Assembly: GCA_001774945.1 (NCBI GenBank)
Contig: MFBL01000058.1
Span: 1-34,370 of the forward strand
Source: Candidatus Curtissbacteria bacterium RIFCSPHIGHO2_12_FULL_41_17
GTDB lineage: Bacteria; Patescibacteriota; Microgenomatia; Curtissbacterales; GWA2-41-24
Length of the DNA stretch: 34,370 nucleotides
Direction of reading: 5' to 3'
Part shown: positions 3-32,828 of the stretch, piece by piece
Layout of the letters: each line of letters starts with the position of its first letter
How positions within the stretch are numbered: position 1 is the stretch's first letter
The notes under the pieces: generated by a model
Database searches by the model: none
What the model was told of the DNA's origin: nothing
Seen by the model: only the letters and a program-made list of their open reading frames with translations
Translations under genes and position numbers: made by a program

Positions 3-878
3 CCGGGCCCTGACTGGGTGCAGGATGGGCAAGTTTTAGACACCTGGTTTTCGTCCGGTCTGTGGCCAATGTCAACACTTGGATGGCCAAATGATTGGAA
101 AATGGTAAATGGTAAATGGAAAATTGAAAATTCTTATTTTCCGTGGGATTTTGAAATATCGGCACCGGAAATTAAATACTTATGGATTGCGCGAATGATT
201 ATGTTTTCCGTTTACTTTACAGATCAAATTCCATTTAAAACTATGTTTTTCCATGGGATGCTTAGGGACTTGCAAGGACGCAAGTTTTCAAAATCACTCG
301 GCAATGGAATCGATCCTACCTACTTAATTAAAAACTGGGGGGTTGATACAACAAGAATGGCGCTTTATTCATACGCAATTCCTGGCCGCGATGGACGGGT
401 ATCAAAAGCAATATTAGATGAGAGGGGCAAAAATTTCCGTAATTTCGGGACAAAGCTGCGAAATATCACCAGATTTATACTCGAGCTGGCGCCCGAAAAA
501 ACAGATGGTTCACGGTTCGCAGTTGACGGTTCACAGTTTAAACACCCGGATGATAAATGGATTAAAAAGGAGTTAGACAGTCTGTGCGCTAGAGTGACTA
601 AGCACCTTGAACAAATCGAGCTTCATTTAGCAGTTGACCAACTATATGAGTTTGTCTGGCATCAATTTGCTGATGTTTACATCGAAAAATCCAAAAAGAG
701 AAGACTCCAGGCACAGTCAATATTAGAGTACGTTCTAAAAAACGTTTTAATTCTTCTTCATCCATTTATGCCTTTTGTCACAGAGGAACTCTACCAGAAG
801 TTTGACAATAGGGAAAAGTCTATTATGTTAGAGTCATGGCCATCCTTCGCTAAAGCTACGGATGGTAAACCTTCATAA
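3..878 (+). CDS. valS: Valyl-tRNA synthetase, C-terminal part (5'-truncated by window)
   Basis: Contains 'VLDTWFSSGLWP..TLGWP', a KMSKS-like 'KFSKSLGNGIDP' and anticodon-domain 'LLHPFMPFVTEELY'; frame is open from base 3. Confidence 0.95.
   Translation, partial: PGPDWVQDGQVLDTWFSSGLWPMSTLGWPNDWKMVNGKWKIENSYFPWDFEISAPEIKYLWIARMIMFSVYFTDQIPFKTMFFHGMLRDLQGRKFSKSLGNGIDPTYLIKNWGVDTTRMALYSYAIPGRDGRVSKAILDERGKNFRNFGTKLRNITRFILELAPEKTDGSRFAVDGSQFKHPDDKWIKKELDSLCARVTKHLEQIELHLAVDQLYEFVWHQFADVYIEKSKKRRLQAQSILEYVLKNVLILLHPFMPFVTEELYQKFDNREKSIMLESWPSFAKATDGKPS
97..131 (+). repeat. 5 x 7-nt tandem array (GGWAAAT) inside valS
   Basis: ggaaaat ggtaaat ggtaaat ggaaaat tgaaaat; encodes WKMVNGKWKIEN. Confidence 0.8.
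504..538 (+). repeat. 5 x 7-nt tandem array (consensus sAcrGTT) inside valS
   Basis: gatggtt cacggtt cgcagtt gacggtt cacagtt; encodes DGSRFAVDGSQF. Confidence 0.8.
840..865. repeat. REP-like hairpin, family B (TTCGCTAAAGCTWC core)
   Basis: ccatcc-ttcgctaaagctac-ggatgg; a related copy at 961-995 (cccgc..cttcgc..aaaagcttcg-gcggg). Confidence 0.65.
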
Positions 879-1481
879 ATGTATTTACCGCATAATTCTC
901 GCCCTTCGATAAACTCAGGGCTTCGAAATTTGCAATTCCCGCAAATTTCTCGCATTATTTCCCGCACTTCGCTTTTTATTAAAAGCTTCGGCGGGCAAGC
1001 CCGCGGCATTTCTATTTTTACTTTGCTTAGGATTCTAGGCGTAGCAATCGTTTGCGCTTCTTTTTTAATTTACTTTTCGAATCAAAACCAACAACAGGCA
1101 AGCAGAATCAATGCCTTGGAAAAAGCGGTTAGTCTTAAACCTTCTGATTTTAATAAGAGACTAAGGCTTGCTCTTTCATATGAGGAGGAATTTAAAAAAA
1201 CCAGCAATTTGCAAAATTTAGAAAAAGCCCTGGAAGAAGCTAAAGTCGCCCAGCAACTCGATCCTCAGAATTTAAATGCTCAAAGACTAATATTGCGGCT
1301 TAATAAGGAAAACTCTGCCGAAATTAAAAAGGAAATTCAACAGGTTGCGACGATTGTTAAAAATCGACCAGACTACCAGGCAGCGTGGTTGAAACTGGCA
1401 GCACTTTACGAAAAATTGGGAGATGAAAAGAATGCACATGATGCCAGGAACAGGGCAAAATTATTAAATCAAAACTTTTAA
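879..1481 (+). CDS. Membrane-anchored TPR-repeat protein; N-terminus built from repeats, true start uncertain
   Basis: One hydrophobic segment followed by TPR-like motifs (LEKAVSLKP, AQQLDPQN, PDYQAAWLKLAALYEKLG). Confidence 0.75.
   Translation: MYLPHNSRPSINSGLRNLQFPQISRIISRTSLFIKSFGGQARGISIFTLLRILGVAIVCASFLIYFSNQNQQQASRINALEKAVSLKPSDFNKRLRLALSYEEEFKKTSNLQNLEKALEEAKVAQQLDPQNLNAQRLILRLNKENSAEIKKEIQQVATIVKNRPDYQAAWLKLAALYEKLGDEKNAHDARNRAKLLNQNF
901..921. repeat. REP-like hairpin, family A (TTCGRYAARCTCA core)
   Basis: gccc-ttcgataaactca-gggc; the same core occurs at 6574, 7244 and 32828-32892. Confidence 0.7.
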
Positions 1482-1483
1482 AG

Positions 1484-2110: not shown

Positions 2111-2133
2111 GATAAAGATGATAGGAGGGTGGA

Positions 2134-3005: not shown

Positions 3006-3013
3006 CCGCAGCT

Positions 3014-11964: not shown

Positions 11965-12102
11965 CTAAACAGCCAGTTTCACGCGACCTCTTATTCTTCT
12001 TCTTGCCAAAACCCTGCGCCCGTCGGTAGTTCTCATACGTTTTCTAAAACCGTGGGTTTTGGCGCGCTTTCTCTTTTTGGGCTGGTAAGTTCTTTTCGGC
12101 AT
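11965..12102 (-). CDS. rpmH: 50S ribosomal protein L34 (not in ORF track)
   Basis: Manual translation [45 protein letters not shown]. Confidence 0.95.
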
Positions 12103-12123
12103 GAATACTCCCTTCGGTCGCTT

Positions 12124-12210
12124 AATTCAAAATTTAAAGTTCAAAATTAAAAATTTAAAAATTCTGACTTTTTACTTGAACTTTCGACCTTTGACTTTTA
12201 AGTTTTGAGT
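12124..12210. repeat. Pair of inverted 7-nt arrays with no gene between them
   Basis: aattcaa aatttaa agttcaa aattaaa aatttaa ... ttgaact ttcgacc tttgact tttaagt tttgagt. Confidence 0.7.
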
Positions 12211-12265
12211 TTATTGCTTAGGTTACTAGAAATTAAATGAGATATCAAGTCACAAAAATCTTAAG

Positions 12266-12305
12266 TTTTGCACAAAAATTTTAACCAGTTGACAACTGTT
12301 GATAA
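12266..12305. promoter_or_regulatory. DnaA-box cluster upstream of dnaA
   Basis: ttttgcaca (12266), agttgacaa (12287), tgttgataa (12297). Confidence 0.6.
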
Positions 12306-12434
12306 CTCTTGTAATCATAGATGTTGGCGCAATTATTTTTAAATTTCTTCAGCCTGATCTTCAATTAATATTTGTCTGCTAAATTTTGACTAACTTTGCG
12401 CCAAATTAATTTTTAAAATTCATTAAATACACAG

Positions 12435-14001: not shown

Positions 14002-15126
14002 ATGAAATGTAAAGTCGCCCAAAATGAACTAGCAAAAGCTTTAAAAGCATGCGAAAAATCGTTTCTAGTTCGTGCCAATTTACCGGTTTTATCAAACATT
14101 TTACTTACTATAAGCAAAAATGGCTTGGAAGCACTTTCGACAAACCTGGAAACAGCTACCAGGGTGGCTGTACCCTGTCAAGGGGAAATTGATGGACGTA
14201 TTACCCTTCCGGGAAGGGTTTTTATGGATTTTATCTGGCAGCTCCCGGAGCAAACACTGGCAATTGAATTACTTGGAGAGGAAGTGCTGGTGACAACAAA
14301 GGGTTATAGCGCAAGGTTTGCCTCAATGCCGGCTGAAGAGTTCCCAGCAATTCCCAAAATAGAAAGCGGTAAAAAAATCGAAATTGAAGCAAGTGTTTTT
14401 GCCAAAGCTTGCGCCCAGGTCGTTTTTTGTGCAGCACAGGACGAAGGCAGGCCTACCTTAAACGGGATTCTTTGCGAACTTAATAAACAGAATTTTTCGA
14501 TGGTGGCAACTGACGGCTACCGTTTGGGATTTGTAACGATTCCAATCGCCGGATCAGTAAGTTTAATAAAGATGATAATACCAGCAAAGACACTCGGGGA
14601 AGTGATTAAGCTGGCAAGTGAATTAGAACAGGAAGAAGACGGAAAATCACTGACAATTACAATAGCAGACACTTTAACCCAGGCTAATTTTAAACTGGGC
14701 AATATCGAGTTTACCTCAAGATTAATTGAGGGCGAATTTCCCAATTGGCAAAAAATAATTCCGGCGAATTTTGCCACCAGCGCCAAAATTTTGCGTGAAG
14801 AATTAACAAGAAGGGTAAGAATAGCAGCTGTTTTTGCCAGGGATAGCGGCAATATCGTCAGGCTTAAATTGGAGGGTAAAAAGCTGACAATTTTGGCAAC
14901 CACAGCTCAGGTGGGTTCAAACGAAACGGAAATGGAGGCGGAGATTAGCGGCAAAGGCGGGGAGATTGCTTTCAACTACCGTTACATTTTAGAGGCACTT
15001 TCTGCGATTGATAGTGAAGTTATTAATTTCCAGATGAGCGAGAGCTTAACCCCCGGGAGGATAACACCCGAAGATACCAAAAGCGGCCTCTTCCAGATCA
15101 TTATGCCGGTCCGACTTCAAGGCTGA
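14002..15126 (+). CDS. dnaN: DNA polymerase III beta clamp
   Basis: 'LPVLSNIL', 'MVATDGYRL', 'SRLIEGEFPNW', 'IIMPVR'. Confidence 0.97.
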   Translation: MKCKVAQNELAKALKACEKSFLVRANLPVLSNILLTISKNGLEALSTNLETATRVAVPCQGEIDGRITLPGRVFMDFIWQLPEQTLAIELLGEEVLVTTKGYSARFASMPAEEFPAIPKIESGKKIEIEASVFAKACAQVVFCAAQDEGRPTLNGILCELNKQNFSMVATDGYRLGFVTIPIAGSVSLIKMIIPAKTLGEVIKLASELEQEEDGKSLTITIADTLTQANFKLGNIEFTSRLIEGEFPNWQKIIPANFATSAKILREELTRRVRIAAVFARDSGNIVRLKLEGKKLTILATTAQVGSNETEMEAEISGKGGEIAFNYRYILEALSAIDSEVINFQMSESLTPGRITPEDTKSGLFQIIMPVRLQG

Positions 15127-15157
15127 CATTTGACAATTGACCATTAACATTTAACAT
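15124..15157 (+). repeat. Left 7-nt array flanking four-helix-bundle gene 1
   Basis: tgacatt tgacaat tgaccat taacatt taacat-ATG. Confidence 0.85.
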
Positions 15158-15532
15158 ATGCGCAAGTTCCGCTTTAGAAAATTTAAAGTTTACCAAGACG
15201 CCATCAGGTTTCGAATGCGCATTAAGGCTTTAACGAATAAGTATTTCCCAAAAGACGAGAAGTATTTAATTATAGATCAAATCATTAGGGCAGCAAACTC
15301 AATTGTTCTGGCAATTGCTGAGGGCGCGGATCGATCAACTGACAAAGACTTTGCTTTATTTCTCAATCGTGCCCACACCTCTTTAAACGAGGTTGTTGCT
15401 TGTTTAGATATTGCCCTTGCCGAGAAATTTATAAGCCTGCGGGTTTACTTGGAGTATGTTGCCGAAGCGGAGAATTTGGCAAACCAGATAACCGCATTTA
15501 GAAGAAAATTATTAATAAGCCCTTCTAAGTAG
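15158..15532 (+). CDS. Four helix bundle protein (23S rRNA IVP / Avd-like family)
   Basis: 'FRKFKVYQ...FPKDEKY..IDQIIRAANSIVLAIAEG..R...DF..FL..A..SLNE'. Confidence 0.9.
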   Translation: MRKFRFRKFKVYQDAIRFRMRIKALTNKYFPKDEKYLIIDQIIRAANSIVLAIAEGADRSTDKDFALFLNRAHTSLNEVVACLDIALAEKFISLRVYLEYVAEAENLANQITAFRRKLLISPSK

Positions 15533-15536
15533 TATT

Positions 15537-15571
15537 TTTGTCAATTGTCACCTGTCAAATGTCAATTGTAT
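15537..15571 (-). repeat. Right 7-nt array (inverted) flanking four-helix-bundle gene 1
   Basis: tttgtca attgtca cctgtca aatgtca attgtat, the reverse complement of TGACAww units. Confidence 0.85.
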
Positions 15572-15583
15572 ACTACTGTGGGA

Positions 15584-15886
15584 ATGTTTAACTCCATTGG
15601 TGATTTAATTCGCACAATACCCGTACGTTCACGCTCTCCACGGGCAATACTTGCCCTTCAGGTAAGAAATGCCGCTTTGGAATCATTGGCTTTGGTTTGC
15701 AGTGATTTACCAAAAGAAATAATAGAGGCGATCAAGCCCTCTGTTTTTAAAGGCGGAGTGCTGACAATAACTGCTCCTCAAATGGTGACAGGTGAGCTTC
15801 AGATGCGCTCTGAGGGGCTGATAAAGGAAATAAATAAGGTGTTGGGGAAAAGAATTGTTACGCGCTTAAGGTTTAGGGTTGGTTAA
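15584..15886 (+). CDS. dciA: DUF721/DciA family replicative helicase loader
   Basis: 'GVLTITAP.....ELQM....LIKEIN..LG...VTRLRFRVG'; downstream of dnaN; ATG at 15584. Confidence 0.75.
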   Translation: MFNSIGDLIRTIPVRSRSPRAILALQVRNAALESLALVCSDLPKEIIEAIKPSVFKGGVLTITAPQMVTGELQMRSEGLIKEINKVLGKRIVTRLRFRVG

Positions 15887-20239: not shown

Positions 20240-20276
20240 GGAAACTCCTAGCTAGATTAAATATATCACAGGGTGA

Positions 20277-20380
20277 CGTTAATCGGTTACGAAGCCCGTA
20301 TCGTAAAGCGTTTTTCGGTAACGTGATTAATACGCTTGACGTAACCGCTCAACGAAACGAGCATCGTTACCGTAAACCGA
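20277..20380 (+). mobile_element. Gene-less copy of the two arms that flank four-helix-bundle gene 2 (MITE-like)
   Basis: 20277-20304 matches revcomp 27049-27076 at 27/28; 20339-20380 matches revcomp 26580-26620 with 4 mismatches and 1 indel. Confidence 0.7.
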
Positions 20381-20395
20381 CCTACGCTCCAGTTG

Positions 20396-22246: not shown

Positions 22247-23439
22247 ATGCTTTGTTTAAGCTGCCCCTGGCCGTTTTGGCTGACAGCCTGAGTCTTTGTA
22301 CTCTTATTCGTAGAAAAGCTTTGCTTATCAACGAATTGGGCGACCTTGGCTGCGGCTGTTTGCAAATTGGCAAGGGCGGCTTTTTGGTCAGCGGTCAAAT
22401 CGGGACTGGGCTGTGGAGGCCCAGCTGGGACAGTTGTTGCCGGTTGTATCTGGGAAGCTATGCTTTGTTGGGGTGCAGGCCTTAGCTGTTCCTGGGCGGT
22501 TGGAGTTGGCAAGGGTTGATCTTTTGCCTGCGGAGCCGCGTTTGACGGCGGCGGGACGTCTAACGTCCCTGCTGCGTTTGACTGCAGCGGTAAGTCAGAC
22601 TTGCCAGCCACGTTTGACGGTGGCGGGGGTACCGGGATCAGGTTACTTGGAAAAGGCGTACCTGCCTGAGGAGAAGGCGGAGTTTGGTTTGACGGCTGCG
22701 AGGTTGGCTGTTCGGTGGTGGTAGGAACTTGCGGGGTACTAGCTGGTGGCGGGGCAGGGACAGGCTCTTCGATGGCTGGTTCAACTATTGGTATCGTGTA
22801 GGATGCTGAATCTAAAATTACCCTTTGAGTACCGGTTGGCGCGGGGTTGTAAATATCATAAAATAATTCGATTAATTCCTGGGATGAAAGCTGCCGGGCA
22901 GTAAGTCCTAACCTTGCCAGCTGTTTAATAATGTGATCTCTTTTAGGGGAAAGGGCGGCTTTGGCATCCTCAATAAGCGCTCTTTTGCTTTTTGTTTTTT
23001 CGACGTTTCTTTTACCTAAACCTTTAAAGCCCATCTCAAGCGGCGAAAAATTGATAATAATATAAAACCTTTTGTCCAGAACCGCCCTTTGCTGAACAAT
23101 TGACTGGATAAAATCCCGGTATTTTTGAATCTGCCTTTTGATATCCGGATTAACTTGCCCTTTTTCTGCTTCTTCCAGATTGTTAAAATAAGCGGTAATA
23201 TCGGCTTTTTTTGACCTGATTAAAATTTGTACGGGGAAGGTTATGGAATTTAAAAATGCCCCGTATGCATAGATTGTGGCGTCCTGCTCGGCTTCCGAAA
23301 GAAGATCAAAGTTGACGGCGGTGGTTGATAAGACTAAGCCGACCCAGCCAGTCTTAAAAATTATCAGATCGTCTGCGATATCATCAAAATCAAGGTGCTC
23401 TTGCGTTGAAGATTTGATTTTAGTTAGATTTTTGGCCAT
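22243..23439 (-). CDS. TraC-like/VirB4-associated protein with Pro-rich tail
   Basis: 'VNFDLLSEAEQDA....Y..FLNS..FPVQILIRS'; overlaps the virB4 start by 4 nt. Confidence 0.7.
   Translation of the reverse strand: MAKNLTKIKSSTQEHLDFDDIADDLIIFKTGWVGLVLSTTAVNFDLLSEAEQDATIYAYGAFLNSITFPVQILIRSKKADITAYFNNLEEAEKGQVNPDIKRQIQKYRDFIQSIVQQRAVLDKRFYIIINFSPLEMGFKGLGKRNVEKTKSKRALIEDAKAALSPKRDHIIKQLARLGLTARQLSSQELIELFYDIYNPAPTGTQRVILDSASYTIPIVEPAIEEPVPAPPPASTPQVPTTTEQPTSQPSNQTPPSPQAGTPFPSNLIPVPPPPSNVAGKSDLPLQSNAAGTLDVPPPSNAAPQAKDQPLPTPTAQEQLRPAPQQSIASQIQPATTVPAGPPQPSPDLTADQKAALANLQTAAAKVAQFVDKQSFSTNKSTKTQAVSQNGQGQLKQSI
22535..22624. repeat. Five tandem 17-18 bp palindromes with GTNNNAC cores
   Basis: gccgc-gtttgacg-gcggc, gggac-gtctaac-gtccc, gctgc-gtttgact-gcagc, ggtaa-gtcagac-ttgcc, gccac-gtttgacg-gtggc. 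Confidence 0.8.
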
Positions 23440-25051
23440 GAGATCCTCCTTTTTCTTTAATTGCCAACGGTGACAAGACCTCTCCAGTCAGGTTGAGCTT
23501 AATTGGTTCAAATAGTGCCTGGCGGCTTTCAACTTCCAGAATATATGTACCGTTTGGAAGTGACGTTGCCGAAAGAAACTGCCCAAGCTTATTTGTTTTG
23601 AGGGCACGTACAGGAATACCGTTTGTGTCTCTGACAGTAATAATTGCTCCAACAACCGGTGATTCGTCAAATTTTAAAACAAGACCGGAAAGGACATTAG
23701 GCCTGTTTGTTAAGGGGATAAGCTGGGCCCTATTTAAAGTTTCAGATGGGATAGTTATTGCCGGTGTTTTTTGGGCATTAATAGAAATTTTAGAATCAGT
23801 GGTGATTTGCTCCTGTGGTTTTAATGAAACTCCCTGAGCGGTTTGGAGTTTTACCTGGAAGGCAGGGATTATTTCTTGCGCCTTAAAGATACCAGCGTTG
23901 TCTACCTTTTTTTGATCGATAGCCATTGGCGCTGGTACCTGCGGTTTTAAAACATTTTCAGTCGGTAAAATAACGGGAGGGGCTTGGTCTGCTCCTGCCT
24001 CTATAAAAGAATCCTCAATATCATAGTGTTTTTTTAATTCTTCAGAGATTTCAAATCGCTTTTCTCCTCGAATTGGCAAGTTAGCGATATTAAAATTGGC
24101 AGGGGGCGCAAAGTGCAGTTTACGAACTCGGGTTTTACCGATTCCGGGAATAAATGTAATGGTTTCCTTGTGGCTTACCGGAATAAAGACATCGTAAAGG
24201 AAATTGTTTTCAGAGGCTAAGTGGGCCGCAGGTGTTATCGTAATTGGAGATTTGATAAGTTCCACAGGCTCAAAACCTGGTTCTTGCCCAACTTGTGATT
24301 TTTGCAGCTTTTTTTCGATCCCAGCAAGGGTATAGGGTTTAGCATGGTCTGAGATTTTGACTTTTTTTTGTGCCGGAGCCGCCTGCTCTTTTGGTATTTG
24401 GGGATGGACTTGGGGAAGGGCCTGGCCCATTTTGCCAAGATATTCTTCTTCCGGCTTCATTGCCCGAAAACCGGCCGGGTTATTTTGCTGTGGCAGTGAT
24501 GCTCCCAAATAAACAGGCGCCTGCGGATAAATTTGGGATGGAAAGATGATAGGCGGCGGAAGGATGCCCTGGCTGGTTACAACAGGCGTAAGATTAAGTC
24601 TCTCAATTGAAGTTTGCTCCTTGATATCAAGAGGTGTTTCTAAATTTTTCGGTAAGGAGCGCAGATAAGCGACTAATCTTTCGCGGCCCTGGGTTGTAAT
24701 TTCCTCAGGAGCATTTTGCGTATAACTTGGCGAAGTAACAACATTTAAAAATTCGGGGATTTTTTCCTCTTTTATCCAGATTCTTTGAGTTGGTGAAAGG
24801 ATAGCCTTGATAAAAGCGACGACCCATTTATCAAAAGGCCTGCCGCCTATGGGCACAAGAGCAGAAAAGATGCCGAATCCGCCAAAGAGTATAGCCAAAG
24901 GCAGCCGAATTATTGGATTTAAATTGGAGAAAAAGAAAATGGCCGCAAAGGACATAGGAATAGCCAGAGTGACAAACTGCCTGACTGTTAAGTTGCCGAA
25001 CAGCTTGAATTCAAACGAAGCGATATGTTGCGGGACAGGATGTTGTTCCAT
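23420..25051 (-). CDS. prgI: PrgI family protein with C-terminal carboxypeptidase-regulatory-like domain
   Basis: 'HPVPQ....EFKLFGNLTVRQF' plus 2 TM; C-terminal 'LSGLV...PVVGAIITVRD..G..VRALKTNKLGQF'. Confidence 0.75.
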   Translation of the reverse strand: MEQHPVPQHIASFEFKLFGNLTVRQFVTLAIPMSFAAIFFFSNLNPIIRLPLAILFGGFGIFSALVPIGGRPFDKWVVAFIKAILSPTQRIWIKEEKIPEFLNVVTSPSYTQNAPEEITTQGRERLVAYLRSLPKNLETPLDIKEQTSIERLNLTPVVTSQGILPPPIIFPSQIYPQAPVYLGASLPQQNNPAGFRAMKPEEEYLGKMGQALPQVHPQIPKEQAAPAQKKVKISDHAKPYTLAGIEKKLQKSQVGQEPGFEPVELIKSPITITPAAHLASENNFLYDVFIPVSHKETITFIPGIGKTRVRKLHFAPPANFNIANLPIRGEKRFEISEELKKHYDIEDSFIEAGADQAPPVILPTENVLKPQVPAPMAIDQKKVDNAGIFKAQEIIPAFQVKLQTAQGVSLKPQEQITTDSKISINAQKTPAITIPSETLNRAQLIPLTNRPNVLSGLVLKFDESPVVGAIITVRDTNGIPVRALKTNKLGQFLSATSLPNGTYILEVESRQALFEPIKLNLTGEVLSPLAIKEKGGSHGQKSN

Positions 25052-25061
25052 TTCCTTAGAA

Positions 25062-25154
25062 AATTTTCAATTTACAATTTTAAATTTTCAATCAATTTAT
25101 AATAATTTAATTTTTAAACATTTAGATTTCATTTCAAATTAAAAATTAAAAATT
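25062..25154. repeat. Inverted AT-rich 7-nt arrays upstream of prgI
   Basis: aattttc aatttac aatttta aattttc ... tcaaatt aaaaatt aaaaatt. Confidence 0.6.
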
Positions 25155-25254
25155 ATCCAGGCTTTGCCTAAAGCCACCATACCATATGAAACAAGGGGCG
25201 GAAAGTAGATCAAACAGCCTCAAAATAGGTGAATTTTCACAAAAACGGAAGCTT

Positions 25255-26565
25255 CTACGGATTAAAGCGGAAGCCCTGCCCTTTTACTGTTATTGTATGC
25301 TTAGGATTGTTGGGATCATCCTCGGTTTTTTTACGCAGGCGATAAATTAGCTGGTCAATTGCTTCGTCTGTGATACCCTCGGCGACTAGGGCTTGCGGCC
25401 AGACTGCTTTGATGATTTCATCGCGAGTTATAAGGCGGCCTTGATTTTCGATTAAAAACTGCAGCAGGCGATATTCTTGCGGCGAAAGCAGGTCAGTAAT
25501 CAGATTTTGCCCCCTCATTATCTCCTTTGTCTTCTCGTTAAAAGTAAATTTTTCCGAAATCAGAGTGGGAACAGTGCTTATTACAAATTCTTTTAACAAT
25601 GGGATAGTAAAAATATATTGTTGTATTGTTAAATTGCCTGCCTGCCGGCGAGGCAGGTTAGATTGTTCCAATTTCTTAAGCAAATCGAATTTAATAAGAT
25701 TCTCCAGGGTATCTTTCATCGGCTCTTTGTTTTGGGCAACTGACCTGAGAGCCTGTTGCTCCGGAGCAGTTAAGGCCAGCCAAATTTCGGAAAGGGTCGC
25801 TTGGACAATTTGTGTTTTAAGGAGAGTATCCATATCAAGCGAAATATTTTCCCTGAGATGTGATTCTGCCAAGACTTTAGTCAGTTTAATATGTCCGCCT
25901 GAAATATCTATGATTTTTTCTTTATCTTTTTGGGGAATTTTTTTGTCAAATACCCGTTCAATTTGCGAAAAGAGGAGATTAGTGGCAGCCTCGTCATGGA
26001 TTGCAAGATAGACAATATTGCCGGTAAAAAAATCATAGAAATCCTTCAAAATCTCCCCGTCAACAAGTTCTGTCAGATCTCTTCTGGTTGCAAAGGCTAC
26101 TGCAAATTTATATTTGGCGATACTTTTGAGGCTTCTTAACAGCTGAAAGAATGATCTGGGAATCCGGTTTTGATATTCGTCAAAGTGATCGAAAAGAAAA
26201 ATAATAGTTTGACCTTGTACAACAAGTTTATTGACAGCCTCGGTTAACTTTTTTGTCAGAACAAAGTAATCGCCAGTATTAGGCGCTTTTTCGTCGAGTG
26301 CTACAAGCAAAAACTTGGCGATCTGTTCCTCTTGATAGTTAGTATGTTCCAAATTTAAGTAGAGAAAACGGACAGCCTCCTCTTTTTCTTTAAGGTGGAA
26401 CTTTAGCAAATTGCGGTTATGGGAAAGAAGCCGAAGAATTGTGGCTTTGCCGGCACCGGGAATGCAGACAATTTGGCAGAATTTACCCGTAAGTACATAG
26501 TCTAATATTTGTTTGACTTCCCCCCGGCGGTAGTCGTTTGGGAATGTGGACTCGAAGATAAGCAT
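25255..26565 (-). CDS. P-loop (STAND/AAA-like) ATPase with C-terminal OmpR-type winged HTH
   Basis: 'IPGAGKAT', 'FLFDHFD'; C-terminal 'LSPQEYRLL..L..N.GR..TRDEI..AVW...IYRLRKK.EDDP..P....TVKGQGFRF'. Confidence 0.85.
   Translation of the reverse strand: MLIFESTFPNDYRRGEVKQILDYVLTGKFCQIVCIPGAGKATILRLLSHNRNLLKFHLKEKEEAVRFLYLNLEHTNYQEEQIAKFLLVALDEKAPNTGDYFVLTKKLTEAVNKLVVQGQTIIFLFDHFDEYQNRIPRSFFQLLRSLKSIAKYKFAVAFATRRDLTELVDGEILKDFYDFFTGNIVYLAIHDEAATNLLFSQIERVFDKKIPQKDKEKIIDISGGHIKLTKVLAESHLRENISLDMDTLLKTQIVQATLSEIWLALTAPEQQALRSVAQNKEPMKDTLENLIKFDLLKKLEQSNLPRRQAGNLTIQQYIFTIPLLKEFVISTVPTLISEKFTFNEKTKEIMRGQNLITDLLSPQEYRLLQFLIENQGRLITRDEIIKAVWPQALVAEGITDEAIDQLIYRLRKKTEDDPNNPKHTITVKGQGFRFNP
25613..25673. 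repeat. 8-nt array interrupted by a CCTGCC palindrome, in frame
   Basis: atatattg ttgtattg ttaaattg [cctgcctgccggcgaggcagg] ttagattg ttccaatt. Confidence 0.7.
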
Positions 26566-26579
26566 TCTAATAAGTTGTA

Positions 26580-26620
26580 TCGGTTACGGTAACGATGCCC
26601 GTTTCGTTTGTCGGTTACGT
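26580..26620 (-). repeat. 3' arm (inverted repeat) of four-helix-bundle cassette 2
   Basis: Imperfect inverted repeat of 27036-27070; includes the last codon and the stop. Confidence 0.8.
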
Positions 26621-27019
26621 GGTAAGTCTTTTGAACTTACTCCAAGCGATACTTAATTTGTAAAGCTGTCTTCCGGATTTATCGTAAATATCAACGAGTT
26701 GATCAATAATTTTCTTGTCTATGTTATATAGATCGCGAGCTTGCTCGAGGCTAACAATCGTCTCATTGCACTCGCCCATGGCATCGTCAAGGTACTTCTG
26801 AAAACCAGCCCTCTGATGCCGTTTAGCATAACCTTCTGCTATAAGCCTTGGAATTGCCTTTGCGGATCTTGCGAGTTGATCGTGAAGATCAAACTTCTCA
26901 CTGTTTGGTAGCTTGGGTAATACTTCTTTATAAACTATGATCATTGCTTTATAAGTATTTTGGTAGACTTCAAGATCTCTAAAGCTTTTTATAATAGTTT
27001 TGTTCCCTGAGCTGTTCAT
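26615..27019 (-). CDS. Four helix bundle protein (23S rRNA IVP / Avd-like family)
   Basis: 'IKSFRDLEVYQ...LPNSEKFDL.DQL.RSAKAIPRLIAEGY.KR....F.KYL..A.GE.NE'. Confidence 0.92.
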   Translation of the reverse strand: MNSSGNKTIIKSFRDLEVYQNTYKAMIIVYKEVLPKLPNSEKFDLHDQLARSAKAIPRLIAEGYAKRHQRAGFQKYLDDAMGECNETIVSLEQARDLYNIDKKIIDQLVDIYDKSGRQLYKLSIAWSKFKRLTT

Positions 27020-27035
27020 AATTCAGTACCCCTTA

Positions 27036-27076
27036 ACGTTACCCCTAAACGATACGGGCCTCGTAACCGATTAACG
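27036..27076 (-). repeat. 5' arm (inverted repeat) of four-helix-bundle cassette 2
   Basis: Coding strand reads cgttaatcggttacgaggcccgtatcgtttaggggtaacgt; a TATAAT lies just upstream (27095-27090). Confidence 0.8.
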
Positions 27077-30200: not shown

Positions 30201-31239
30201 TAAGGGCCTTTCGGAATATGACGGACTTCAGGTTTATGGCGCTGATAGGCATAGACAAAGCGTTCTTTATGGGGACCACACGCCTTTCTTTTGTCGGGAA
30301 ATAGACAATATCTGGTGGCATAATTCCAATGAGGAGAGAGGACGGGCAAGAGAGGTTAACGATATTATGGAAGAACAATTCAGGGGTTACCAGTTGCCCA
30401 CAGTCAGAAAGCTTGTGCGTTTTACCGATATTATGTTCTTTAAGGCAGCAAATTCTCCGCTTTTGCGTGACCCTGCAGGTTTTACTGCCGAATTTGGTGT
30501 TGCTCTGCCGGCTAACCCTACAATCAAAAATGCAGTAGATGGGCTAAAAGCCCAATATGTTGCCGGGCGTAAAACCAATGAGGCTAATGCCGAAGGCGAG
30601 GCAATCGCGGACATGATTGATCGAGGTTATATCCGCTTCGGATGGTTGCCAAATCCGGGAGAGAATCCTAACAACGTGTTGATTAACTGGGAAGAAGAGG
30701 TCGTAGACGCTACCCGCTTTAACTTTGTTGATTTTTCGGGTGACAGAGCAAAAGCTAAAAAAATGTTTGAGGAGTCAATGCAGAATTATATATTAAATCC
30801 GACATTCGAGAATTTAATGAAATGGTACAGAGAAGACTTTTATTCAAAGCGAACCAAGAGGATGTTCCCAAATTTTAAAATGGCGCTTAAGGCGCATTAT
30901 GAAGTTATGAGGAGAGTCAAGACGACGTTTAACCGCCAGGAGAATATTTCCGCTCCTGTAATGTGGGCAAATATCCAAACAGCCATGGAATCGGGAATGA
31001 TTACCATTGCTGATGCTGAAGACCTGAAAAGGGATATCTTGGGTATTGGTCCAAGGTGGCTGAGGATTCCGGGAATCGGGCCAGTCCGCTATGCAAGGAT
31101 GTGGGCAGATTTCAGCTATTATGTAGGCAAACAAGTCTATAGCCCAGCGGGTATTGCAGGCAATATATTCTCCGCACTTTTCCAGTTTTTCGCAGAAGCT
31201 TTTAAACAATCAGCACAACAATTCGGGGCAACTCGCTAG
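27229..31239 (+). CDS. Very large hypothetical protein (~1336 aa) with internal repeats
   Basis: Long uninterrupted ORF; ATG at 27229 follows AGAGG (ORF is open from 27166); no recognised domain. Confidence 0.8.
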   Translation: MAEPAVREETSSQTPSAQNEEVERNLQDRERERGRKARAEQTRRKEIEKKAEKFKQIKLTFAQQKKIADVVSRVQAEKQAAVFPRQLAEFKALLAKTKAYGRIHLLRMKPQEIVAETQLLLRYAQRETLTPSDLPELSRVPLKNREVKRKLIEKEVEKAASLDEEELTPDKIKEHLQIAGIEEAGTELPTALDEVKWVEADEHLEEITDRERAEEILRQHGIKDELPKKWEEMTPLQRVEWQEEHSIFSHATNREEDEIFYTAPEIDLAKLSAAVGDVKSEAPLETLLREEVAEKLRVAEVGAQIPEEWNDMDVARRLDILAGTGIVNEVEPPIETVKIGEKEYRVWEDKTGRKVIFGFQTLSKKEVEAVFKKLGVKVKLPRDWDNPAVIRPDGTRIKGRKKIGEAGRGVWMDEKQLWLEAKGVQTILASKDKGDYSLLEPRSLGLTSGQVKELYGFDPGRDWYLLSASDRAKVFMSHGYIQSVGGGAFEHPEWNDVVGEKNPLDPIDPVTNPATLNPGANVRIPLAEIIKRRLRLVTEGRAISGPVPAGALPHDWDELHTAMLAQTARMTAADYKNFGDIMGNWEEMNKLVRWVSASGEPHNEMILDWILPQTIRLDIQTKITALDAEITARVAALPPQARMALFNDLKDKSVDLLNSLKSGWYSEEYIRDELLKKARESTLNTFPGYEGIREWFVWQREFPNVQAIMEEFRELKAVTDPAEMETVVRRGLMKVMATALNAQDVQNYYQRILSLLQDYPRFQSKEFLEQANRLYGMVNAHLMVTKEYLTSQGDQGDPAKELQVYQEINDYLAERGINTWELLLKSFRMTYTDGRAIEGDDKLPILDAAGNEYDFNLLSDALNVYYFWLAQEKLMFNEIVRFQREGGALNAAVFAACGVPPPAVFSRDGLEAWARRNTFLQANNEPRILPDGTPGTNFEYQNLMMKERIKDFLQDFRGIDPAILNRVPGVKGRMERLLDSVNLAAFRWVRVKGLSEYDGLQVYGADRHRQSVLYGDHTPFFCREIDNIWWHNSNEERGRAREVNDIMEEQFRGYQLPTVRKLVRFTDIMFFKAANSPLLRDPAGFTAEFGVALPANPTIKNAVDGLKAQYVAGRKTNEANAEGEAIADMIDRGYIRFGWLPNPGENPNNVLINWEEEVVDATRFNFVDFSGDRAKAKKMFEESMQNYILNPTFENLMKWYREDFYSKRTKRMFPNFKMALKAHYEVMRRVKTTFNRQENISAPVMWANIQTAMESGMITIADAEDLKRDILGIGPRWLRIPGIGPVRYARMWADFSYYVGKQVYSPAGIAGNIFSALFQFFAEAFKQSAQQFGATR

Positions 31240-32828
31240 CCACCTGAGCCATCATCAGGAGGTCTTCTTCCGAGATACAATTCTCTTCTTTTTCTTGCGG
31301 CGCTTCCGAGGAAGCCTGGGAGTTTTGTTGCTCTGTCCTCTTGTGCTGCCTGACCGGCTGATTGGAATGCGCCCCTTACATGTCCCACAGCTGCCCTTGC
31401 GCCTGATCCTGTATAGGCTACTCCTGCACCTGCGCCGAGGGCGCCGCCGATTGCGCCTCCGACTCCTGCTCCGCCGCCAAGACCTTTTGCGCCGATTGCT
31501 TCTTTGATCATCTTTGCCGCCTCCGGAGTCATAAATAAGACTCCGAGTGCGATTATTTTACCAATTGCAGCCGGCTCAAATCCACCGACGAGTAAAGGGA
31601 ACTTGAGAGCCCCTGAATCTGCTCCACCAAATGCACCTTCACCCTTTCCGCCAAAGGCCTCGATGCCGCCTACAATGCCGGCGAAAATGATCATTAAGGC
31701 AACTGTCGGGAAAACAGAAAGGTTGGCAGCCATTTGCTTAAACCACTCTTTGGCGCCGTTGTTGCCCGGAAGCGCCTGGATTAAAAAATAAAAAGGGGAA
31801 GCTATAGTCATAATAAGAATCATCACATAGGCCATCAAAAGCATTAGAAAAACCCTGAACATGATAAAAAGGGCGGCAATACCGACTATCAGACCGGCTA
31901 GTCCGGCTAACGGCCATTTACCAAGAAATTTAATGATATCGATGAGTGTTCCCCCACTGTCAAATATTGTATCGAGAAAGCTTGCAATAGCTTGGGCGGT
32001 TGTCACAAAAATTTCACCCCAGGAGCTAGTAATAACGCCGAAGATGCTTTTATCAAAGGCCACACCTTTAGCTGTATCTGGATCGATCAGTGTACCTGGT
32101 AATGCGTTTATAATAACGTTTAAACCCAGAAACATTAAGTCGATCATTAGACCAGCAATGGCATAGCTAAAGGTGACAAGTATTAAAGCAACAACTATTC
32201 TTGGCAGAGAGTCCTGAACAGTAGCCACAGCTTGCGGTGAAATGTGGGCTCGAAACATTATCATAAAGCCCATGATCACAAAAATTATTACAAACCCAAG
32301 ATAAGCAATATTCCTGAAGGCTTCCCAGAGTGCTTTGACAGGCTCTAATGCTCCATAGCCAAAACCCTGCGCATAGGCAGGCTGAACAGGGTTAAATTTC
32401 TGGATTTGCTGGGCGAAATACTGGACGCCGGAGGCTGGCGGTTTTGAGTATAGGCTGGCAACAAGATTGGAAGTGGCGGCCAAAGCGCCGCGACCGGCTG
32501 TGACCTCGTCTGTTTCGGGGTGAAGCAGAGAGATGCCCAAAAGATGGGTATTGAGGCTGTCGATGGTACCGGCGATTTGGTTCAGGTTAAATACCTTGTC
32601 GTCAAAGGCGTTCTTCTTAATCGCGCATTTGTTTATTACGTCGATAGCTTGCTGGGCTGTTGCATCATCTGGAATTTGACATTCGGCTGTGGGGCTGGGG
32701 GATGGTCCGACGGCGTGGGCGGGGCGGGGGGCAACGATAAACAATAAACTAGAAACTAGAAACAAGAAACTTACGGCAAGAAGCGTTAAGCGTTTAGCGT
32801 TTAGCGTTAAGCAGGCAGCGATTCTCAT
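31236..32828 (-). CDS. VirB6/TrbL-like polytopic membrane protein with signal peptide
   Basis: 'LWEAFRNIAY', 'LPRIVVALILVTFSYAIAGLMID', 'SPFYFL...LPG....W', Gly-rich tail; ATG at 32828, AHA cleavage site. Confidence 0.7.
   Translation of the reverse strand: MRIAACLTLNAKRLTLLAVSFLFLVSSLLFIVAPRPAHAVGPSPSPTAECQIPDDATAQQAIDVINKCAIKKNAFDDKVFNLNQIAGTIDSLNTHLLGISLLHPETDEVTAGRGALAATSNLVASLYSKPPASGVQYFAQQIQKFNPVQPAYAQGFGYGALEPVKALWEAFRNIAYLGFVIIFVIMGFMIMFRAHISPQAVATVQDSLPRIVVALILVTFSYAIAGLMIDLMFLGLNVIINALPGTLIDPDTAKGVAFDKSIFGVITSSWGEIFVTTAQAIASFLDTIFDSGGTLIDIIKFLGKWPLAGLAGLIVGIAALFIMFRVFLMLLMAYVMILIMTIASPFYFLIQALPGNNGAKEWFKQMAANLSVFPTVALMIIFAGIVGGIEAFGGKGEGAFGGADSGALKFPLLVGGFEPAAIGKIIALGVLFMTPEAAKMIKEAIGAKGLGGGAGVGGAIGGALGAGAGVAYTGSGARAAVGHVRGAFQSAGQAAQEDRATKLPGFLGSAARKRRELYLGRRPPDDGSGG
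32736..32814. repeat. Two adjacent 5 x 7-nt arrays encoding a signal peptide
   Basis: gataaac aataaac tagaaac tagaaac aagaaac; gaagcgt taagcgt ttagcgt ttagcgt taagcag. Confidence 0.8.

Follow-up and report, generated by a model that had tools for sequence, protein, structure and literature searches.

Short tandem arrays with mostly 7-nt units recur along the window, by which we mean the whole 34,370-nucleotide stretch of DNA analyzed here, and two of them directly frame a gene for a four-helix-bundle protein of the IVP (23S rRNA intervening sequence protein) family. What ties such arrays to such a gene? We favor, with a probability of about 0.6, the reading that IVS-like IVP cassettes and dispersed heptad arrays make up one genome-wide repeat system tied to IVP genes. 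The original prediction, in which arrays of about five units are a code read by pentameric four-helix-bundle proteins, is partly confirmed as an observation and partly supported as an interpretation.

Arrays and IVP cassettes in the window

Repeats were called with Tandem Repeats Finder (TRF) and with a separate lag-7 detector. TRF returned nine period-7 rows and the detector nine arrays at almost the same positions, and these are listed here with the IVP genes and the arms that flank them.

96..132, unstranded: heptad array TGGAAAA/TGGTAAA, about five units, in the ValRS coding sequence (lag-7 score 22.5; TRF 96-131, 5.1 copies)
504..538, unstranded: degenerate heptad array, GGTTCAC-type, in the ValRS variable linker (lag-7 self-match 19/28)
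12124..12163, + strand: AT-rich heptads that make up the left arm of an imperfect hairpin located upstream of dnaA (TRF, 5.6 copies)
12180..12212, + strand: ACTTTTG-type heptad array, right arm of the hairpin upstream of dnaA (lag-7 score 11; TRF 12190-12212, 3.3 copies)
15124..15157, + strand: IVP cassette 5' arm, TGACATT/TGACAAT heptads (TRF 15124-15149, 3.7 copies; flank comparison; fold)
15158..15532, + strand: IVP / four-helix-bundle gene in the dnaN-dciA spacer, 124 aa, pI 9.9 (PF05635 E 8.5e-26; TIGR02436 E 7.8e-23)
15538..15569, + strand: IVP cassette 3' arm, TTGTCAA heptads, reverse complement of the 5' arm (TRF, 4.6 copies)
25062..25092, unstranded: intergenic AATTTTC-type heptad array, one copy of a dispersed element (TRF, 4.4 copies)
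25136..25155, unstranded: short AAATTAA heptad array, partner side of the 25062..25092 hairpin (TRF, 2.9 copies; fold)
26560..26614, - strand: second IVP cassette, 3' arm (flank comparison, arm pairing)
26615..27019, - strand: second IVP / four-helix-bundle gene, 134 aa, pI 9.4 (PF05635 E 3.7e-21; TIGR02436 E 6.9e-17)
27020..27060, - strand: second IVP cassette, 5' arm, with period 13 rather than 7 (TRF 27027-27055, 2.2 copies)
32733..32770, unstranded: AGAAACT/ATAAACA heptad array (TRF 32739-32770, 4.6 copies; lag-7 score 21)
32781..32812, unstranded: AAGCGTT heptad array, 10 nt from the 32733..32770 array (TRF, 4.6 copies)

The heptad at 504-538 had been noted beforehand and is present in degenerate form, with TRF seeing 508-538 as period 14 in 2.2 copies. 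An 8-nt array claimed at 25613-25673 was called by neither TRF nor our own detector (lag-8 self-match 27/53) and is not confirmed.

The ORF bracketed by two arrays, 15158-15532, is a PF05635 member, as had been supposed. The first TGA of its 5' arm is the dnaN stop codon and the end of the arm abuts the IVP ATG. In the minimum-energy fold of 15118-15578 the 5' arm pairs with the 3' arm (z -3.37), with an arm duplex of -29.4 kcal/mol that is matched by 1 of 200 controls. The arms of the second cassette also pair (-35.1 kcal/mol, z -2.23), and its minimum-energy fold contains 30 long-range pairs between them. An Rfam search of the window and five cassette loci matched no family. That the bracketing arrays are inverted repeats pairing into a stem was absent from the original prediction, and it gives them a simpler role.

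Pairing is also predicted for other arrays in the window. Upstream of dnaA, the + strand fold of 12118-12218 has a z of -3.10, with none of 200 shuffles as good; the complementary neighbor of the left array scores z -5.39, and the two arms form a duplex of -17.1 kcal/mol compared to -5.2 with non-cognate arms. A long hairpin is predicted for 25055-25160 on the - strand (z -2.24). The 32733..32770 array lies in the first 130 nt of a long ORF on the - strand, 31236-32861, and its in-frame translation is a hydrophobic N-terminal stretch of that ORF. Its complementarity to the 32781..32812 array is unconvincing, since 32728-32818 folds with z -1.32 (+) and -0.93 (-), yet the cognate duplex is still stronger than non-cognate ones (z -3.28).

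The dnaN-dciA spacer can be compared across genomes. It contains an IVP ORF in the window's genome (G000), G039 (with an internal stop), G041 and G032, and arrays alone in G001, G008, G004 and G017, the ORF-less arms of G008 being similar to those of G000. Metagenome contigs from three runs lack the ORF: between 15150 and 15540 they have 29 other letters instead. No RNA run contains the stretch. The ORF-less arm pairs at this orthologous site agree with the suggestion, made beforehand, that orphan arrays are footprints of cassettes.

IVP genes and arrays across genomes and phyla

All eight canonical IVP genes (PF05635/TIGR02436) of the window's genome have inverted, internally periodic flanks that adjoin the start and stop codons and are predicted to pair as a stem around the ORF. 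A period-7 array is found on at least one side of five of them, the arm duplex reaches z <= -1.6 in six cassettes, and in five the minimum-energy fold contains 15 or more long-range pairs between the arms. Two cases count against the main reading: arm pairing is weak in one of the eight, C47 (z -0.8), and the C27:14350 cassette pairs only with its start codon moved further in. Two divergent IVP-like genes of the same genome (C24, C10) lack flanking arrays. The eight IVPs are all basic (pI 8.7-9.9) and share 19-33% pairwise identity.

This arrangement extends across phyla. We fetched 61 IVP loci from many phyla, 59 of them testable, and scored an array when it reached at least 9 within 80 nt of the gene. 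At least one side carries such an array at 44 of the 59 loci and both sides at 17, compared to 3.2% of 597 control windows; no array with this score is present at 15. Period-7 arrays make up 22 of the 31 found upstream and 26 of the 30 found downstream, and their units contain AG in 20/22 upstream and CT in 22/26 downstream.

Moreover, array number follows IVP gene number. Across 150 genomes of the window's phylum, IVP count and heptad-array count correlate with a Spearman coefficient of 0.64, the median rising from 0 array hits with no IVP to 36 with seven or more; 72 of 151 sampled genomes have no array match, mostly those lacking IVP genes. A second phylum, that of a Phocaeicola genome, gives 0.62-0.66 in 100 genomes, and 0.62 with genome size removed. 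Exceptions are G055 (11 hits, no IVP), G063 (11 IVPs, 2 hits) and G279 (11 IVPs, 1 hit). The correlation does not merely count cassette arms, because only 9 of the 139 arrays in the window's genome adjoin IVP genes, and its P values overstate the case, because related genomes are non-independent. Thus the proposed link between arrays and four-helix-bundle genes holds in the window's genome, across the cross-phylum loci and in two phyla.

The cassette architecture is that of the 23S rRNA intervening sequence (IVS), but in protein-operon spacers such as dnaN-IVP-dciA. The 23S rRNA IVSs with an S23p/IVP ORF, in Leptospira, Coxiella and others, likewise hold a PF05635 ORF within stem-forming terminal inverted repeats. 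According to excerpts of one study, the Coxiella IVS has tandem GACAGAT heptamers directly upstream of the S23p ORF, in numbers that vary between strains, and a 28-bp terminal stem that RNase III cuts in vitro (PMC4990558). In contrast, the cassettes of the window's genome lie outside rRNA helices, both of their arms are built of repeats, and eight diverged paralogs and more than 100 orphan arrays share one genome.

We take a cassette to be an IVP ORF set between two inverted short-unit arrays, mostly of 7 nt, at its start and stop codons; these arms are predicted to enclose the ORF in an imperfect stem some 25-40 bp long. In the transcript this stem could be an RNase III substrate, by analogy with the Coxiella IVS, and an RNase III gene is present in the window's genome; such cleavage would let the cassette sit harmlessly in an operon or rRNA. 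Arrays would probably grow and be homogenized by slippage in a 7-nt register, those in coding sequence being restricted to three-unit steps and short lengths. A basic protein that is pentameric in its solved relatives, the IVP may act on the arrays, either binding them or helping them to spread, and the parallel rise and fall in the numbers of arrays and IVP genes would then be accounted for. Counting against the main reading, the IVP has none of the nuclease or recombinase motifs tested, and a reverse transcriptase was not found in the 87%-complete genome.

Copy number and unit sequence

Where the window's genome (836 kb) has 139 lag-7 arrays, its three second-order Markov shuffles have 12, 21 and 15. 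Period 7 accounts for 176 of 647 rows in whole-genome TRF output (period 6 for 32, period 8 for 59), and AGT four times running occurs 53 times at period 7 and once each at periods 6 and 8. The more than 100 orphan arrays include some ORF-less arm pairs, most being single with 4-5 units. Because only 25 of 109 arrays have a complementary neighbor (z < -2; median z -0.38), the stem model accounts for the cassettes and some 20 pairs but not for most arrays.

Rounded TRF copy numbers are two in 36 arrays, three in 37, four in 51, five in 41, six in 2, seven in 4, eight in 4 and nine in 1. The array length has its mode at 30-32 nt, and its distribution is not geometric. Arrays of about five 7-nt units do recur; more exactly, they comprise 4.3-4.6 units, or five cores over 31 nt. 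An AGT/ACT core is present in only 72 of the 139 arrays. Exact in-phase cores in 71 AGT/ACT arrays number five in 24, four in 20 and six in 3; with one mismatch allowed, 32 of the 71 have five. Of the 46 arrays measuring 27-36 nt, 23 have cores that span 31 nt exactly and 28 begin 0-1 nt from a core, array ends also tending onto cores. Since arrays often begin and end on a core, their length is 7n+3, most often 31 nt. Some genomes stop at five: 10 of the 31 array-rich ones in the phylum sample have at least three five-core runs and none of six or more, and the sample holds 74 runs of six or more compared to 264 expected under a geometric law. The copy-number check thus came out as anticipated, with a mode or ceiling near five.

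This ceiling speaks for the pentamer code, in which IVP homopentamers would read arrays in the manner of TRAP, one 7-nt unit or AGT-type core per subunit, each paralog having its own unit and the orphan arrays being putative dispersed binding sites. TRAP (trp RNA-binding attenuation protein) is a ring-shaped homo-oligomer that reads triplet-repeat RNA. By analogy, a ring homo-oligomer could read short, evenly spaced cores with variable spacers between them, and the modal array has five cores. Family members were expected to be pentameric, and the solved relatives 2GSC (reached with the C38 paralog as query) and 2RLD are indeed deposited with five chains each. The frequency of five cores and of 31-nt, core-bounded spans, the basic IVPs and the strong array-IVP link all point the same way, as do the TGACA-type arms at five of five close homologs (at least 61% identity) of the window IVP 15158..15532.

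We nevertheless consider the pentamer code improbable. Arrays flanking IVP genes measure anywhere between 19 and 80 nt (about 3-11 units), and periods 8, 9 and 13 also flank bona fide IVP genes, the window's second included. Long arrays dominate G097, G089, G130 and G160, and overall core runs fall from 515 (four) to 295 (five) and 116 (six or more). The ceiling could itself be set by a reading-frame and loop-size limit, because arrays above 35 nt are proportionally fewer in coding (10/88) than in intergenic DNA (11/36) and the gain in ValRS is exactly 21 nt; slippage between two microhomologies also yields core-bounded 7n+3 arrays. The expected covariation of unit sequence with IVP phylogeny holds only among close relatives and fails for two IVPs that are 74% identical over their full length, whose unrelated units have no more than 3 of 7 letters in common. 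Contrary to the notion of a unit for each paralog, orphan units do not fall into one family per paralog but grade into one another, and the core is limited to about half of the arrays. Unlike TRAP sites, IVP arrays have spacers that are themselves repeated, a variable copy number and either strand relative to transcription (18 versus 20, no bias).

A further relative is Avd, the DGR accessory protein, a basic pentameric barrel of the same fold superfamily. One paralog of the window's genome matches the Avd model weakly, at 21 bits, short of the 80-bit equivalog cut-off, and a reverse transcriptase (PF00078) was not found in this genome, which is 87% complete.

Dispersed copies, arrays within genes and known repeats

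Imperfect arrays of 36, 34, 31 and 28 nt with the same irregularities recur at unrelated loci with sharp borders. A 36-nt stretch at the 25062..25092 array equals C17:3800 with unrelated flanks, a 31-nt near-copy of the 96..132 array with two mismatches lies at C38:4291, and about 32 nt upstream of dnaA (12124-12156) occur at about 25 times flank depth in metagenome contigs, again with unrelated flanks. No target-site duplication is visible at the dispersed copies.

By crude ORF calls, on which the in-ORF counts rest, the majority of arrays in the window's genome lie inside ORFs, in both orientations. Genes with arrays include LeuRS (four arrays), SecA, MiaA, GT2/GT4 glycosyltransferases and ValRS; in LeuRS, ValRS, SecA and MiaA the orphan arrays are in-frame insertions at variable loops of these essential genes. 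ValRS is ORF 3-878 of the window, which matches tRNA-synt_1 and Anticodon_1. Its 96..132 array translates in frame as WKMVNGKWKIEN; the orthologs in G039 and G008 lack an array at this site, that of G000 being 21 nt longer, and G004 and G017 have another heptad array there, so that different arrays fill one loop site in different genomes. The 504..538 region varies in length across orthologs. Variant units keep 24 of 66 deep-coding arrays open, and the identity of in-gene arrays could partly reflect convergent selection against stop codons.

Such copies invite comparison with REPIN/RAYT-like or MITE-like mobile DNA, arrays or arm pairs being copied by a trans-acting factor and the IVP cassette being the autonomous or "cognate gene" form. 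Rickettsia palindromic elements insert a short repeat in frame into conserved genes. In REPIN-RAYT systems, short repeats are dispersed and inverted copies flank a cognate gene, according to excerpts of one report (PMC3116915). Identical imperfect arrays at unrelated loci, the high-depth array, the inverted copies around the IVP gene, the way array abundance follows IVP presence and the varied occupants of one loop site would all fit. However, we think this origin unlikely. The IVP is a four-helix bundle of 120 aa that matches no transposase, nuclease or defense family, and the copies lack a visible target-site duplication. The 19-33% identity of the eight IVPs argues against a recent cassette burst, unit sequences form a continuum instead of a few element families, and the repeats are tandem heptads, not one conserved palindrome.

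Heptanucleotide repeats are widespread, an example being the STRRs of heterocystous cyanobacteria. Among long simple repeats, heptamers are reportedly the commonest in most prokaryotic genomes, and polymerase slippage is the proposed cause (Mrazek 2007, as cited in excerpts of PMC4679880 and PMC4692102). Excerpted reports describe TAACTGA heptad repeats in Beggiatoaceae, Cyanobacteria and Bacteroidetes, with 2-6 copies in a Beggiatoaceae genome (PMC4679880), a GGGAATC repeat in Xanthomonas (PMC4692102) and elements of four or five heptanucleotides in Geobacter metallireducens (PMC2700814). As excerpted, these repeats share with ours the period of 7, the short length, the location between and within genes and sometimes inverted pairs; they involve one or a few units per genome, and the roles proposed are S1, Csp or CsrA, G-quadruplexes and "global regulators". 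In contrast, the units of the window's genome are very diverse but have an AGT/ACT-type core in common, and the arrays are linked to IVP genes. This link goes unmentioned in PMC4679880 ("helix bundle", "S23" and "intervening", 0 occurrences) and PMC2700814 ("S23", "intervening sequence" and "four helix", 0 occurrences), and it points to a partner for a long unexplained class of bacterial repeat.

Ordinary polymerase slippage, with the heptanucleotide excess a matter of replication mechanics and the nearness to IVP genes incidental, is very unlikely: it accords with the general abundance of heptamers and with 7n+3 lengths, but about half of the sampled genomes of the phylum are array-free, mostly those without IVP genes, array lengths are not geometric, imperfect arrays repeat identically at unrelated loci, and inverted periodic arrays stand on both sides of all eight IVP genes. 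We give hardly any weight to translational insulators, in which three successive stop-bearing 7-nt units would close every reading frame and the arms would block ribosomes from either side, with coupled re-initiation at the IVP ATG; orphan arrays within genes would be left unexplained, C47 and the downstream arm of C38 have period 9, and the sense stops in 18 of 22 upstream units and antisense stops in 18 of 26 downstream units exceed letter-shuffled units only marginally (18 versus 14.2, P 0.047; 18 versus 15.4, P 0.16), although the period (7, 8 or 13) is mostly not divisible by three and the window's 5' arm opens with the dnaN stop.

Heptad arrays in the window and at IVP genes

The window (34.4 kb, contig C58) belongs to an 836-kb genome of 58 contigs that has 40% G+C and is 87% complete. 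It carries the 3' part of valS, rplY, a gene for a DUF4012 protein, polysaccharide genes, yidC, dnaA, dnaN, a DciA-like gene, a TraG/PrgI-type secretion cluster, a PIN/MazE pair, and two genes of the IVP family of small four-helix-bundle proteins (PF05635, TIGR02436). Sequencing runs carrying its sequence come from groundwater and soil, and among the runs listed no RNA run matching 14800-15900 was found. Together with the DUF4012 protein and the small genome size, these runs suggest a member of the Patescibacteria (CPR). Features of the window are as follows, a heptad array being a tandem run of a 7-nt unit.

12100-12420, upstream of dnaA: heptad hairpin plus long AT-rich runs; this spacer could be a replication origin with DnaA-box-like sites
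12288-12311, in the same spacer: 10-nt repeat GTTGACAACT, 2.4 copies
15158-15532, dnaN-dciA spacer: IVP gene (PF05635, 90.7 bits, cut-off 33.8; TIGR02436, 80.8 bits, cut-off 24)
16943-25051: conjugation/type-IV-secretion-like cluster with an M23 peptidase (1098 aa), a TraG P-loop ATPase and a PrgI-family protein
25055-25160: intergenic heptad hairpin adjoining the secretion-like cluster
25636-25660: short G+C-rich inverted repeat (GCCTGCC ... GGCAGG) in the coding sequence of a Trans_reg_C protein
26615-27019: second IVP gene (PF05635, 75.8 bits; TIGR02436, 61.6 bits)
32961-33652, minus strand: PIN-domain toxin and MazE-type antitoxin pair

By TRF, the window has nine period-7 arrays, whose positions equal those in the original prediction or differ by a few bases, and our own lag-7 detector calls the same nine. 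The array at 504-538 does have heptad periodicity and is degenerate, with lag-7 matches at 19/28 positions. The 8-nt array once proposed at 25613-25673 is called neither by TRF nor by our detector (lag-8 matches, 27/53); the inverted repeat at 25636-25660 may be what suggested it. Genome-wide, 176 of 647 TRF rows have period 7, compared with 32 of period 6 and 59 of period 8, and our detector reports 139 lag-7 arrays versus 12-21 in three Markov shuffles, with lags 4, 5, 10, and 11 at background and lags 6, 8, 9, and 12 moderately raised. Four AGT triplets at a spacing of 7 occur 53 times, and once each at spacings of 6 and 8. Tandem head-to-tail 7-nt units are present above chance, as in repeats of the LSSR/STRR kind.

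PF05635 matches ten places in this genome, eight of which are canonical IVP genes. In all eight, a periodic array abuts the start codon and another the stop codon, the two sides being inverted, so that each gene forms a cassette with a 5' and a 3' arm; the two divergent IVP-like genes (contigs C24 and C10) have no such arrays. The arm period is 7 at the window gene 15158-15532, at the genes on C52 and C12, and at both genes on C27; it is 7 and then 9 on C38, 9 on C47, and 13 at the second window gene. Identity to the first of the eight proteins is only 19-33%, all eight are basic (pI 8.7 to 9.9), and they match the TIGR02436 "four helix bundle protein" model and not the Avd equivalog. The solved relatives 2GSC (E 2.3e-25 to the C38 paralogue) and 2RLD have five chains each as deposited. 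In predicted folds of the 15158-15532 cassette, the 5' arm pairs with the 3' arm at z -3.37, and none of 100 shuffles does as well. The predicted arm duplex reaches z -1.6 or lower in six of eight cassettes, and in five of eight the minimum-energy fold has 15 or more long-range pairs between the arms. The window and five other cassette loci have no match to known RNA families in Rfam.

The cassette architecture is found across phyla. Relatives of this genome's most typical paralogue were collected from named public genomes at 61 loci, 59 of them with enough flank, covering Aminicenantes, Lentisphaeria, Geobacter, Anaerolineae, Acidobacteria, Clostridia, Bacteroidota, Planctomycetes, Thiosymbion, Elusimicrobiota, Binatia, and many CPR groups. 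In this sample, which a single-paralogue query biases towards close relatives of that paralogue, a tandem array (score of at least 9, within 80 nt) lies on at least one side of the IVP gene at 44/59 loci and on both sides at 17/59, versus 3.2% of control windows from the same loci (n = 597), bearing out the enrichment that had been foreseen beside four-helix-bundle genes. Arm period is 7 in 22/31 upstream and 26/30 downstream arrays, period 8 coming next, and arm length has a median of 32 nt (range, 19-80 nt). Units contain AG in 20/22 upstream and CT in 22/26 downstream arms; therefore, the arms are complementary in kind, and the upstream/downstream duplex falls below z -2 at 20/59 loci.

Moreover, IVP genes and arrays rise together from genome to genome. 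PF05635 matches correlate with AGT-heptad hits at Spearman 0.64 in 150 genomes of the window's phylum and at 0.62-0.66 in 100 genomes of the phylum of a Phocaeicola genome (0.62 with genome size removed), correlations whose P values are too small because related genomes are not independent. Median hits are 0 without IVP genes and 36 with at least seven in the window's phylum (2x2 odds ratio, 13.7), and 1 without IVP genes and 93 with 7-10 in the other. Genomes without IVP genes are thus mostly array-free and IVP-rich ones carry dozens of arrays, with G055, G063, G279, G208, and G226 as exceptions. The correlation is not made by the arms themselves, since only 9 of the 139 arrays of the window's genome are located at IVP genes. 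We put the probability that arrays and IVP genes are truly linked, evolutionarily or functionally, at roughly 85%.

Array size, dispersal and insertion into genes

Rounded TRF copy numbers of the period-7 rows are 2 (36 rows), 3 (37), 4 (51), 5 (41), 6 (2), 7 (4), 8 (4), and 9 (1). Array length peaks at 30-32 nt, alike in coding, intergenic, and edge arrays, and falls sharply above 35 nt, with a longer tail beyond that length outside coding DNA (11/36 non-coding versus 10/88 coding arrays). An AGT or ACT core is present in 72/139 arrays, about three times the expectation. Among 71 AGT/ACT arrays, exact in-phase cores number five in 24, four in 20, and six in 3, and 32 have five cores when one mismatch is allowed. 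Of the 46 arrays of 27-36 nt, 28 have their first core at offset 0-1; a core span of 31 nt is seen in 23 of them and one of 24 nt in 16. Therefore, the modal object is AGT-N4 repeated to five cores.

We also ran pattern searches for four, five, six, and seven cores in this genome and 150 others of its phylum, where exact-core run lengths split degenerate arrays and pattern hits overlap within long arrays. Runs of exactly four, exactly five, and at least six cores number 21, 27, and 7 in this genome, and runs of four, five, and at least six number 515, 295, and 116 in the 78 other genomes with any match. At least three five-core runs and none longer are found in 10 of 31 array-rich genomes of the phylum, and four genomes (G097, G089, G130, and G160) have mostly long arrays. 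With a geometric law fitted per genome, 264 runs of at least six cores are expected and 74 are observed, and the length distribution is not the monotonic one of slippage drift. The copy number is thus not geometric and has a mode near five, as had been anticipated. In the window's genome and some relatives, "about five" is thus a true mode or ceiling, and it is not universal; arm lengths at IVP genes span 19-80 nt.

Orphan arrays are those away from IVP genes. Adjacent array pairs (gap of at most 60 nt) number 20, versus 2.05 expected and at most 7 in 1000 random placements, and cognate arms are predicted to pair better than non-cognate ones (mean z -1.26). Only 25/109 arrays of at least 24 nt have a complementary neighbour (z < -2; median z, -0.38), and therefore most orphans are single. 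The pair at 32733-32812 was considered as a hairpin and rejected, since it folds no better than shuffles. Arrays at unrelated loci can have their irregularities in common: a stretch of 36 nt is identical at C17:3800 and window 25062. Copies of 34 nt (C3:986 and C23:10589) and 28 nt (C6:229 and C57:21379) likewise keep their irregularities, and 31 nt with two mismatches are common to the unrelated loci C38:4291 and window 96. In metagenome contigs, array 12124-12156 is about 25 times as deep as the sequence on either side, and at its borders are many loose ends of unrelated sequence.

The dnaN-dciA spacer shows arrays with and without the gene. All eight genomes of the family examined have heptad arrays there, with an IVP ORF between them in the window's genome, G039 (with an internal stop), G041, and G032, and none in G001, G008, G004, and G017. 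In G008, TTAACA-type and TGTCA-type arms stand back to back, like the arms of the window minus the ORF; in G004 and G017, AATCCTA...TTTAGGA arms enclose a loop of about 50 nt. In metagenome DNA contigs from three runs, 29 other letters stand where the ORF would be between 15150 and 15540; the locus is uncertain because the sides are short (27-30 letters at 88% likeness), so that other loci or organisms are possible. In addition, IVP ORFs with one internal stop and arms kept are seen at L093 (G039:C28), L113 (G018:C4), and several further relatives. Thus, IVP genes degenerate where they stand, in keeping with the arm pairs that lack an ORF.

Arrays are also found within genes. A crude caller of our own, which takes the longest ORFs and covers 91% of the genome with 888 of them, places 88 arrays inside ORFs, 36 in intergenic DNA, and 15 on edges; intergenic DNA is about 4-fold enriched, though the majority of arrays are in ORFs. 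Host ORFs include LeuRS (four arrays), SecA, MiaA, and GT2/GT4 glycosyltransferases, and ValRS in the window, so the in-ORF arrays are no artefact of over-long ORFs. In an alignment of LeuRS from this genome and 11 relatives, the arrays fall in loops missing from more distant orthologues, and the same loops carry other heptad-derived peptides in relatives, LQTTNYKLPT being common to four genera. The ValRS site is empty in G039 and G008 and 21 nt (three units) longer in the window; G004 and G017 have a different heptad array there, likewise of +21 nt, and G001 has a third. Among deep-coding arrays (more than 150 nt from the ORF start), 24/66 have a sense-strand stop in the consensus unit, and variant units keep the frame open. 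Of the deep-coding arrays, 18 show AGT on the sense strand and 20 show ACT, and recognition of the sense strand, that is, of RNA only, was rejected on this count.

A small number of loop sites in LeuRS of the family (loci L016-L026) have taken up many lineage-specific insertions, which bring the protein to 840-1090 aa. Heptad-derived examples are KLKVKSE, NGKWKMEN, and LQTTNYKLPT; further insertions are longer, of low complexity, and common to distant genomes, e.g., GPVSSFPPVQGEAVHGEAAS...

Unit sequences, related systems and possible mechanism

Arms follow their ORF at short evolutionary range and are replaced at long range: the five closest homologues of the 15158-15532 protein (61-70% identity) all have TGACA-type arms, other loci included, and L102 and L116, 74% identical over 120 residues, have units sharing three of seven letters. 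The predicted covariation of unit with IVP phylogeny is confined to close pairs: units are common only to pairs with at least 55% identity, and to 40% of these. Overall, unit similarity and protein identity have a Spearman coefficient of 0.05 over 378 cassette pairs, a value reached by 123/500 label permutations. Orphan units match a resident arm unit at six or more of seven letters in 60/130 cases versus 31 expected. Single linkage joins 127/130 orphan units in one continuum; the idea of one unit family per paralogue was rejected on this result and on the coefficient of 0.05.

The record of heptanucleotide tandem repeats goes back to the cyanobacterial STRR sequences, and to our knowledge these repeats have no accepted cause or function. 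Likewise, we know of no function for the IVP/TIGR02436 family, which is widespread and has solved structures. Heptanucleotide repeats are described for Beggiatoaceae, Cyanobacteria, and Bacteroidetes (PMC4679880) and for Xanthomonas and Nostoc (PMC4692102), both accounts reporting them as the commonest long simple repeats in prokaryotes, and Geobacter metallireducens has 49 four-heptanucleotide elements, within and between genes, and 15 five-heptanucleotide sites (PMC2700814). The available portions of these three accounts do not mention IVP genes, and no published link between IVP, S23, or TIGR02436 and heptamers was found in the open-access literature.

One of the closest known systems is the intervening sequence (IVS) of 23S rRNA, in which an S23p/IVP-family ORF is enclosed by terminal inverted repeats that form a stem, as in the cassettes described here, whose stem is predicted. 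IVS insertion sites are helix 9, 25, or 45 of 23S rRNA, whereas in the window one cassette separates dnaN from dciA and the other also stands among protein genes, not in an rRNA helix. REPIN-RAYT systems have an HUH (IS200/IS605-like) transposase as the cognate gene, whereas the gene flanked here matches PF05635 only. A diversity-generating retroelement (DGR) was rejected, as this 87% complete genome has no reverse transcriptase (PF00078) match; the Avd equivalog score is 21.3 bits against a cut-off of 80. A defence system was also rejected, as none of four IVPs tested has a PADLOC match.

Original prediction and present data part at the code of one repeat unit per subunit of an IVP pentamer, as with TRAP: the non-geometric copy number and the enrichment at IVP genes stand, and the strict code is disfavoured. 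We favour an IVS-like cassette with satellite arrays, because the arms are inverted, periods and lengths at IVP genes are variable, and unit-protein covariation is weak. By analogy with rRNA IVS, the arms would pair in RNA and RNase III, whose gene is at C30, would cut the stem, which would make a cassette harmless in operons; such processing of the predicted mRNA stems has slightly less than an even chance of being right. Arrays may lengthen by slippage between flanking cores, which would give lengths of 7n+3, and in coding DNA they may be held to three-unit steps and short loops, which would sharpen the ceiling near five. The IVP protein might itself act on the arrays, and its putative direct binding to them is suggested only tentatively. 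A bolder version, which we consider unlikely, would cast IVPs as the trans-acting partner so far missing for heptanucleotide repeats, with a pentameric barrel of basic protein binding evenly spaced AGT-type cores in single strands, five cores or 31 nt per pentamer, and driving array birth, homogenisation, and spread, including into essential genes, with rRNA IVS as the first-seen special case of a cross-phylum cassette-plus-satellite system. The one-unit-per-subunit code is more doubtful still. That the arms are "insulators" bringing stops in all frames is a weak alternative, stop-bearing units being in only marginal excess over letter-shuffled units.

The data bring together two loose ends, the heptanucleotide repeats and the IVP family, through a testable link, the inverted heptad arrays that bracket IVP genes in many phyla. 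A causal link would single out a protein to examine for binding, RNA processing, and repeat instability. It would also account for the odd short insertions seen in conserved proteins of bacteria with small genomes, a matter that bears on annotation, alignment, and phylogeny of these lineages.

Two further observations concern repeated loci. The cassettes C38:267-635 and C52:6737-7099 (loci L011 and L005) have near-identical contexts, each directly 5' of an ORF starting MAKTKRIFIQFECPVC (L33-like) and with a similar conserved non-coding stretch upstream, which points to duplication of the locus or, alternatively, to two rpmG copies, both accompanied by an IVP of their own that has diverged. Just upstream of the heptad pair at 32733-32812, window 32838-32883 holds a 23-nt direct repeat (2.0 copies by TRF) with a GCTCAGG-type motif, and a 27-nt stretch with a similar motif is common to C8:38544 and C38:4232; this looks like a second family of dispersed short repeats.
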